Of a stretch of 64,000 nt of DNA, positions 47,024-48,118 are shown in pieces. The translations under genes were made by a program, and so were the position numbers. How positions within the stretch are numbered: the stretch's first letter is position 1; each line of letters begins with the position of its first letter. Location of the stretch: assembly GCF_056712565.1 (NCBI RefSeq), contig NZ_CM160072.1. One strand, 5' to 3'. The notes below the pieces were generated by a model. The model made no database searches. It was not told the origin of the DNA and saw only the letters and a program-made list of their open reading frames with translations.

Positions 47024-47578
47024 ATGGATCACTACCTTGAGATCCGCGTTCTGCCAGATCCTGAATTTTCGAGCGAAATGTTGATGGCGGCGTTATTTGC
47101 AAAACTGCATCGGGTATTAGGTGCAAGAGGGCAAGGCGATATCGGCGTGAGTTTCCCTGACGTAAATGTTATGCCTGGAGCGCGTTTACGCTTGCATGGT
47201 AGCGCCCAGGCATTGCAGGCGCTTGAAGCCTCAACGTGGCGTAAAGGACTAACGGACTATTGCCAATGTTCACCTGTCACTCCCGTTCCAGAAATAAAAG
47301 GCTGGCGAGTAGTAAGCCGCGTGCAGGTTAAAAGTAACCCTCAGCGTCTGTTAAGGCGTTCAGTGAAAAAAGGCTGGCTAACTGAAGAATAGGCAATTGA
47401 ACGACTGGCGACGCAGGCTGAACAGCGGACTGATTTACCTTTTCTCAATATGAAGAGTTTGTCGAGTCAGCAACTGTTCAAGTTGTTTATCCGTCATGGT
47501 GATTTGCTCAAAGAACCGGTTAAAGGGGAATTTAGTAGTTATGGATTAAGCGCAACCGCCACTATTCCCTGGTTTTGA
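47024..47578 (+). pseudogene. cas6f: Csy4 (Cas6f) repeat endoribonuclease interrupted by an in-frame TAG at 47390-47392
   Basis: MDHYLEIRVLPDPEF... for 122 codons, then TAG; the same frame continues 61 codons to a TGA at 47576-47578 and keeps Cas6f C-terminal homology (DLPF, FIRHG, YGLS, PWF); AGGAG ribosome-binding site. Confidence 0.85.
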
Positions 47579-47688
47579 TGCTTTGCAATTTTTAACAGGC
47601 CTGGCCATGTGGTTGGGCCTTTTTATGCGCGCCATGCCCACCGCATACAAAAAAAGCCCGTACTTTCGTACGAGCTCTTCTTTAAAGA

Positions 47689-47776
47689 TGGCGGTGAGGC
47701 GGGGATTCGAACCCCGGATACGTTGCCGTATACACACTTTCCAGGCGTGCTCCTTCAGCCACTCGGACACCTCACC
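47689..47776 (-). tRNA. serW: tRNA-Ser (anticodon GGA)
   Basis: Reverse complement GGTGAGGTGTCCGAGTGGCTGAAGGAGCACGCCTGGAAAGTGTGTATACGGCAACGTATCCGGGGTTCGAATCCCCGCCTCACCGCCA; 88 nt with long variable arm and encoded CCA. Confidence 0.95.
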
Positions 47777-47949
47777 AAATTGTTTTGCTGCCAGACCTCA
47801 TAGGTGGCAACGGGGCGCTACTATAGGGAGTTGGAGTGAAACGGTCAAGAAGAATTTATATAGATTGATTTGTTTGGTTACGCAATGAACACGCTGTTCG
47901 CGGGACGGAGATTATGACCGTATGTGTTCTGGTCAATTGTTTATCAAAA

Positions 47950-48118
47950 GCTATGCAGAAAATATGAGATTGAAGAAATACCAAACCGACCCTTTTTCTA
48001 GGTTGTAATGTAACTCATTGATTTTCTTATTGCTATTTTGAAGTCTGGAAAAAGGGTTTGAATCTGCGATTTTGTAAGTTTTAACAGTAAATCAATCGGA
48101 TAGTCTGCTATTATTCCA
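47950..48118 (+). promoter_or_regulatory. Putative leader of CRISPR array 2
   Basis: AT-rich non-coding stretch 5' of the first repeat; polarity set by the degenerate distal repeat. Confidence 0.4.

Follow-up and report, generated by a model that had tools for sequence, protein, structure and literature searches.

The tRNA gene serW lies within a decaying type I-F CRISPR-Cas locus of Escherichia coli and very probably shares one haplotype block with the cas genes and array 2

Why does a tRNA gene stand inside a CRISPR-Cas locus, and did the parts on its two sides come together separately? The question arises in a 64-kb stretch of DNA from an E. coli strain of phylogroup B2 (hereafter, the window). 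A sequence-only reading of the window had placed the tRNA-Ser gene serW between csy4 and the leader of the second repeat array, with the cas genes and array 1 on one side and array 2 on the other, and had suggested that the two arrays and the cas block arrived or persisted as separate modules around a tRNA landmark. A tRNA within the locus is the standard E. coli type I-F layout and has been known since 2010. Diez-Villasenor (2010) reportedly described a CRISPR-III locus with CRISPR4.1 and CRISPR4.2. Touchon and Rocha (2010; PMC2886076) assigned the clpS-tRNASer interval to CRISPR3 and the tRNASer-infA interval to CRISPR4, and already gave both the layout and the modular reading. Almendros et al. 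(2014; PMC3903273) described the CRISPR-III locus with CRISPR4.1 and CRISPR4.2, along with a single CRISPR4.1-2 array in cas-less strains, and Slukin et al. (2025; PMC12736100) placed serW by name after the cas cluster and ahead of the second repeat region, calling the arrays RR1 and RR2. The layout explains the clpS-tRNASer and tRNASer-infA array intervals of E. coli typing schemes. The points added here are only mildly new: a serW allele linked to the system, a cross-genus hint that the tRNA arrived later, and the decay of this particular locus. Beyond annotation their significance is small, a modest refinement on whether the tRNA or CRISPR reached the interval first.

The window is nearly identical to E. 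coli ATCC 11775 and HS13-1, with two differences from ATCC 11775 over the CRISPR-cas region and two per 19.5 kb compared with HS13-1. The plus-strand order is clpA, leader 1, array 1, cas1f, cas3f, csy1, csy2, csy3, cas6f, serW (minus strand), leader 2, array 2, and infA (minus strand). The clpA gene (36227-38518) is followed by the leader of array 1 (CRISPR3, or CRISPR4.1; 38519-38730, plus strand), which carries conserved leader motifs and is homologous to the leader in the clpA-serW intergenic region of K-12. Array 1 (38731-39058, plus strand), a RefSeq CRISPR feature, has six 28-nt I-F repeats, the terminal one degenerate, and five 32-nt spacers. The genes cas1f, cas3f, csy1, csy2 (a pseudogene), and csy3 occupy 39231-47013 on the plus strand, as taken from the RefSeq annotation of the near-identical ATCC 11775 and HS13-1 loci, and cas6f (csy4), also a pseudogene, follows at 47024-47578 on the same strand. 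From the end of cas6f to the start of array 2 there are 540 nt, which include serW in antisense orientation with a promoter and terminator of its own. The last part of this stretch is the conserved core of the array-2 leader (47989-48118, plus strand). Between the serW promoter region and this core lies a spacer specific to the I-F haplotype (47858-47988, no strand assigned) with no homologue in K-12. Array 2 (CRISPR4, or CRISPR4.2; 48119-48507, plus strand) consists of seven repeats and six spacers, and infA (48620-48838, minus strand) closes the clpA-infA interval. The leader-proximal repeat of array 2 carries a C-to-T change, with T at 48139 where ATCC 11775 and the repeat consensus (GGCAGTTTAGAAA) have C.

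The cas gene set and order of a type I-F system (cas1f, cas2-3f, csy1, csy2, csy3, and cas6f) were confirmed by the RefSeq annotation of the near-identical loci, by tblastn synteny over 27 loci, and by the Pfam family Cas_Csy4. Both arrays have the same 28-nt repeat, a CRISPR-DR4 repeat for which Rfam RF01317 gave 12 matches scoring 35.6-50.1 bits; spacer length is 32-33 nt. The site between clpA and infA, the arrays flanking the cas genes, and serW ahead of the second array identify the E. coli CRISPR-III locus. The published E. coli I-F locus likewise has these flanking genes, this gene order, the 28-nt repeat, two leaders, and a tRNA-Ser before the second array. The division of the locus by serW was read correctly from the sequence: array 1 adjoins clpA and lies with the cas block on one side, and array 2 lies on the other.

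The single tRNA gene of the window was called by ARAGORN as tRNA-Ser(GGA) at 47689-47776 on the minus strand, with an encoded CCA, and scores 52.2 bits against the Rfam tRNA model (gathering score, 29). A gathering-mode Rfam run over 14 kb listed no tRNA, which was a filter artefact; a permissive run over 1.3 kb found serW at 52 bits. The gene specifies a class II tRNA with a long variable arm and the anticodon GGA, and it stands at its conserved position upstream of infA. Its placement between csy4 and the array 2 leader is confirmed, with cas6f upstream and the seven-repeat array downstream. A promoter-like site, TTGACC-17-TATAGT, is located at 47820-47848 on the minus strand with 10/12 matches and is kept in all aligned E. 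coli serW loci. An intrinsic terminator follows the gene (47649-47683, minus strand) as a 15-bp hairpin and then U7. Its fold has a free energy of -21.7 kcal/mol (z = -4.56), and 0/200 shuffles were equally good. On the other strand, a consensus scan found a weakly supported terminator-like hairpin with a T-run 3' of cas6f (47597-47620, plus strand); its fold, at -16.8 kcal/mol (z = -0.64), is statistically unexceptional.

These signals suggest that serW is an ordinary housekeeping tRNA gene, independently transcribed on the strand opposite to the cas genes from its own putative promoter to its predicted strong terminator. It is not a CRISPR component. Judging from the same signals, serW would create two transcription domains in the locus, with the cas operon running towards serW as far as terminators at 47597-47683 on one side, and array 2 transcribed away from serW on the other. 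Array 2 would then have to rely on its own leader, and the layout implies that it needs a promoter of its own.

The end of the csy4 frame had been taken as the end of the gene, which did not hold. The stop at 47390-47392 (codon 123) results from a C-to-T change at 47390 relative to ATCC 11775, CAG to TAG. The 122 codons ahead of it match positions 1-119 of Pfam Cas_Csy4, and the 61 codons past it match positions 123-181 of 181 (E = 7.5e-19), so the match is split by the stop. Because this TAG is a nonsense mutation with the Cas_Csy4 match continuing beyond it, the true end of cas6f is 47578 and not 47392. The first 186 bases of what had appeared to be an intergenic interval make up the 3' third of cas6f, which leaves 110 nt rather than 296 nt between cas6f and serW. 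The identical cas6f of HS13-1 is marked in RefSeq as a pseudogene with the comment "internal stop." A csy3-cas6f segment 100% identical to the window occurs in only two of the 240 cas-positive E. coli genomes described below, HS13-1 and 10035004-3.

A second amber TAG interrupts csy2 at 45291-45293 (codon 72), where strain B7A has CAA. This stop is common to ATCC 11775 and HS13-1, and RefSeq again gives a pseudogene with an internal stop. Both inactivating stops of the locus are TAG; not all six cas genes have intact frames, and the window differs from the published E. coli I-F locus by these two stops, at cas6f codon 123 and csy2 codon 72. Given the known Csy4 fold, a Cas6f lacking its C-terminal third should be unable to process crRNA. 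Since cas6f and csy2 both have amber stops, the I-F copy in this strain is decaying, and the system is probably inactive. A different route of loss is seen in E. coli SCPM-O-B-8794 (locus L009, 3530-4400), where array 1 adjoins a truncated cas3f and cas1f has been deleted together with ~400 cas3f codons; this is an example of decay beginning at the array-1 end.

We then compared the clpA-infA interval across 5,426 complete E. coli genomes. The csy3-cas6f segment was found in 240 of these genomes and the array-2 leader also in 240, and the cas6f 3' end, serW, and leader 2 were contiguous in 232. From the equal counts and the 232 contiguous loci, we infer that the cas-positive set and the leader-2-positive set are the same. 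No array 2 without cas genes was detected among the 5,426 genomes. The array-1 leader with at least one repeat was present in 5,418 of the 5,426, and serW was present in 5,425, whatever the CRISPR content. In every locus inspected, array 1 lay on the clpA side of serW. The cas-positive loci that we opened (ATCC 11775, HS13-1, B7A, O170:H18, TW10573, and SCPM-O-B-8794) share one order. The non-contiguous cases inspected, B7A and TW10573, have an IS100 between serW and leader 2, inserted in the spacer upstream of leader 2 at the window equivalent of 47940-47944 (L004, 11002-12803, in B7A; L006, 8113-9914, in TW10573). The O170:H18 strain has an IS100 inside csy3 (L005, 7133-8934).

Because cas-less genomes keep leader 1 only, array 1 persists alone and array 2 does not. 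Array-only variants thus exist for array 1 only. The sequence-only reading had set an identical layout with no array-only variants against the idea of separate modules, and these genomes show something else: array-1-only loci are the majority, while the inspected cas-positive loci share one order. Array 2, never seen without cas genes, is not an independent module.

The cas-less arrangement is exemplified by K-12, in which the order is clpA, leader 1, a repeat, a 32-nt spacer, a degenerate repeat, serW, 108 nt, and infA. This orphan array (CRISPR3, or CRISPR4.1-2) has leader 1 and the repeat as in the window and likewise lies on the clpA side of serW. Unlike the window, K-12 has one spacer with a degenerate terminal repeat, no cas genes, and no array 2. 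There is no repeat on the infA side of serW in K-12; the 108-nt segment there contains no degenerate repeat even at up to 8 mismatches and has no homologue in I-F E. coli, in Citrobacter amalonaticus, or in L048, a cas-less locus from outside E. coli. The K-12 orphan spacer matches cas1f of the window at 30/32 positions (39328-39359, minus strand), directly after a CC PAM, and its protospacer has three mismatches in B7A and two in Escherichia whittamii. It is the published "anti-CRISPR" spacer (PMC2886076). The alternative haplotype, in ~95% of genomes, retains only leader 1 and a short orphan array on the clpA side, with a spacer that matches cas1f beside a CC PAM.

How far does the cas-linked haplotype extend? 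Over a 209-nt serW segment, the window (B2) and B7A (B1) have 0/209 differences, whereas ST131, a cas-less B2 strain, has 10 differences from the window, and B7A has nine from K-12. Leader 1, the clpA 3' end, and aat group by phylogroup, unlike the serW segment. For leader 1, B7A and K-12 have 0/212 differences, and the window and ST131 have five. In the genome set, 238 genomes match the window over the serW segment with an identity of 99% or more, and the next best stands at 97.1%. The serW segment therefore follows the cas genes and not phylogroup. Since it tracks I-F status, the cas-linked block reaches through serW to array 2. The left boundary of this block is in or near array 1. The cas block and the serW segment, together with leader 2 and array 2, very probably behave as one haplotype block in the population, and serW is no neutral landmark between modules. 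The I-F haplotypes of the window and B7A show mosaic divergence of ~7% with patches of zero, and given this mosaic, the B1/B2 identity of the serW segment could be a recent recombination patch.

The linkage extends into the tRNA gene. The serW of the window is not identical to that of K-12; the two differences together exchange the first T-stem pair, G-C in K-12, for C-G and so compensate each other. We aligned eight I-F loci of Escherichia (E. coli of B2 and of B1, two other E. coli, E. whittamii, and Escherichia sp. E1V33), and each has C-G, versus 0/5 cas-less E. coli, which have G-C. The exact I-F-type allele was found in 249 records versus 240 I-F genomes. The C-G allele is also present at the cas-less locus L048, and C. 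amalonaticus carries the G-C allele despite having an I-F locus. The link between the serW allele and I-F is strong, yet short of absolute.

A Cas6f scan provided a cross-genus set of 27 loci. The leaders of both arrays share, over six genera, a conserved core of ~135 nt with the motifs GACCCTTTTTT, ATTGAT, and AAAAAGGG in common. The core of the array-2 leader aligned with a Pseudocitrobacter leader at z = 8.7. With the serW segment removed, the spacer between cas6f and array 2 gave no alignment with Pseudocitrobacter outside the 130-nt leader core (z <= 3.2). A downstream array with a homologous leader is found in Pseudocitrobacter, E. cloacae, Raoultella, C. freundii, and distant genera; in the distant I-F loci it begins ~130 nt past cas6f. 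Because a homologous leader core is found across genera, array 2 is an ancestral part of the I-F cassette and not an E. coli creation. Pseudomonas aeruginosa PA14 has a canonical contiguous I-F locus. Contiguous loci in our set (Zoogloea, Azomonas, Serratia, and Brenneria) have the order cas1, cas2-3, csy1-3, cas6f, and a co-oriented array with a ~130-nt leader, as here. They have nothing but those ~130 nt between cas6f and the array, whereas the window has 540 nt with an antisense tRNA.

The E. coli arrangement (clpA, array 1, cas genes, serW, array 2, infA) recurs in C. amalonaticus. In that species part of serW is repeated as an RtT-like copy, and genes for isochorismatase, pirin, and LysR stand between serW and leader 2. 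The split layout is also found in E. whittamii and Escherichia sp. E1V33. In these two (L007, and L008 at 5631-10280, respectively), cas6f and serW are separated by a 5.9-kb chaperone-usher fimbrial operon that encodes a subunit, a chaperone, an 830-aa usher, and an adhesin. Two RtT-like elements, each repeating part of the serW 3' end, come after the operon. E. cloacae DSM 26481, Lelliottia sp. V86_10, and Pseudocitrobacter have a contiguous I-F locus in the clpA-infA interval with no tRNA in ~21 kb, and in E. cloacae and Pseudocitrobacter array 2 precedes infA. Among cas-less loci with an Enterobacter-type InfA, nine of 10 have clpA adjoining infA with no tRNA, four of these nine being distant Enterobacterales at ~65-70% identity. 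These cas-less Enterobacter-like loci contain no I-F repeat remnants at up to 8 mismatches. A tRNA in the clpA-infA interval is specific to one clade. Two other features were seen in this group. E. cloacae DSM 26481 (L038, 18389-19302) carries a RES-Xre toxin-antitoxin pair where E. coli has serW, between cas6f and array 2, and in Lelliottia sp. V86_10 (L039, 7330-7560), ~4 tandem copies of a ~57-nt unit lie just 3' of clpA.

Taking these results together, we are confident, with little reservation, that serW is a housekeeping gene within the fixed, published I-F architecture, that the cas block, serW segment, leader 2, and array 2 form one haplotype block, and that the locus is decaying in this strain. 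The separate-module scenario is essentially that of Touchon and Rocha (2010), argued in PMC2886076: the tRNA was there before the rest, with array 1 as an old "anti-CRISPR" array lacking cas genes; the cas genes were later gained beside that array, and array 2 was then created or acquired independently across serW. It accounts for the presence of serW in 5,425/5,426 genomes whatever their CRISPR content, for array 1 without cas genes in ~95% of genomes, for array 2 occurring only together with cas genes, and for the contrast between leader 1, which follows the clonal frame, and the cas-linked part, which departs from it. We nevertheless consider it unlikely. I-F loci of several genera include, as a standard part, a downstream array whose leader has a homologous core, the split layout is common to C. 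amalonaticus, E. whittamii, and E1V33, and the B1 and B2 I-F loci have the same layout despite being ~7% diverged. Of the original suggestion, persistence as separate parts stands, in that array 1 persists without the cas genes. Separate arrival of the arrays and the cas block is not supported: we found no evidence for it, and the shared repeat, the shared leader core, and the layouts in other genera speak against it.

A tRNA beside accessory genes also invites the idea that the cas block is a genomic island, integrated at the serW 3' end with the tRNA as attachment site. OI-43 of O157:H7 is a tRNA-linked island at serW. In such serW-linked islands, OI-43 and one in strain PK8277, the accessory DNA lies at the serW 3' side, as does the cas block here, and the serW 3' flank is a recurrent site of foreign DNA: the PK8277 island, with DUF4942 and DUF957 genes, abuts serW, and the fimbrial operon of E. 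whittamii and E1V33 lies between cas6f and serW. RtT-type partial copies of the serW 3' end are present in O145:H28, C. amalonaticus, E1V33, and Intestinirhabdus. RtT repeats (a partial tRNA 3'-end copy plus ~130 nt), present in these relatives, were not found in the window, and a search of all 64 kb allowing up to 3 mismatches returned no second serW 3' end. Unlike tRNA-linked islands, then, the cas block has neither an integrase nor a duplicated tRNA 3' end; no integrase is annotated between clpA and infA, and the same I-F lineage occupies the clpA-infA interval of genera that have no tRNA there. We regard integration at serW as very improbable.

The reverse order of events, with the tRNA as newcomer, deserves more weight, although we would still bet against it. 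On this view serW was inserted between cas6f and leader 2 of a contiguous I-F locus in an Escherichia/Citrobacter ancestor, possibly with neighbour genes. The tRNA-free I-F loci of E. cloacae DSM 26481, Lelliottia V86_10, and Pseudocitrobacter fit such an insertion, as do the nine of 10 cas-less Enterobacter-type loci in which clpA is next to infA, the occurrence of serW at one and the same point wherever serW and I-F co-occur, and the C. amalonaticus locus, in which serW lies with three resident genes between the cas genes and array 2. The comparison is unrooted, however, and leaves the direction of change unpolarised. A clean insertion is not demonstrable either, since the spacer outside the leader core is not alignable between E. 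coli and Pseudocitrobacter, and the lack of I-F remnants in the cas-less Enterobacter loci means that I-F may be a later arrival in that clade. A broader version, which we offer tentatively and rate slightly lower still, is that I-F is the older clpA-infA resident across Enterobacteriaceae, that serW was inserted in the Escherichia/Citrobacter lineage, and that the cas genes, the C-G serW allele, and array 2 have since formed one block. If true, this would reverse the published inference that the tRNA predates CRISPR4.

Two further differences between strains were noted along the window. The upstream region and 5' part of csy1 (43559-44300) are hypervariable between I-F haplotypes, with up to 56/150 mismatches between the window and B7A; background divergence outside this region is about 5-7%, and Csy1 protein identity is only 84%. 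Finally, the window loses register with ATCC 11775 inside ftsK, from 57933 onward, probably from an indel in a repetitive linker region; HS13-1 matches the window there.
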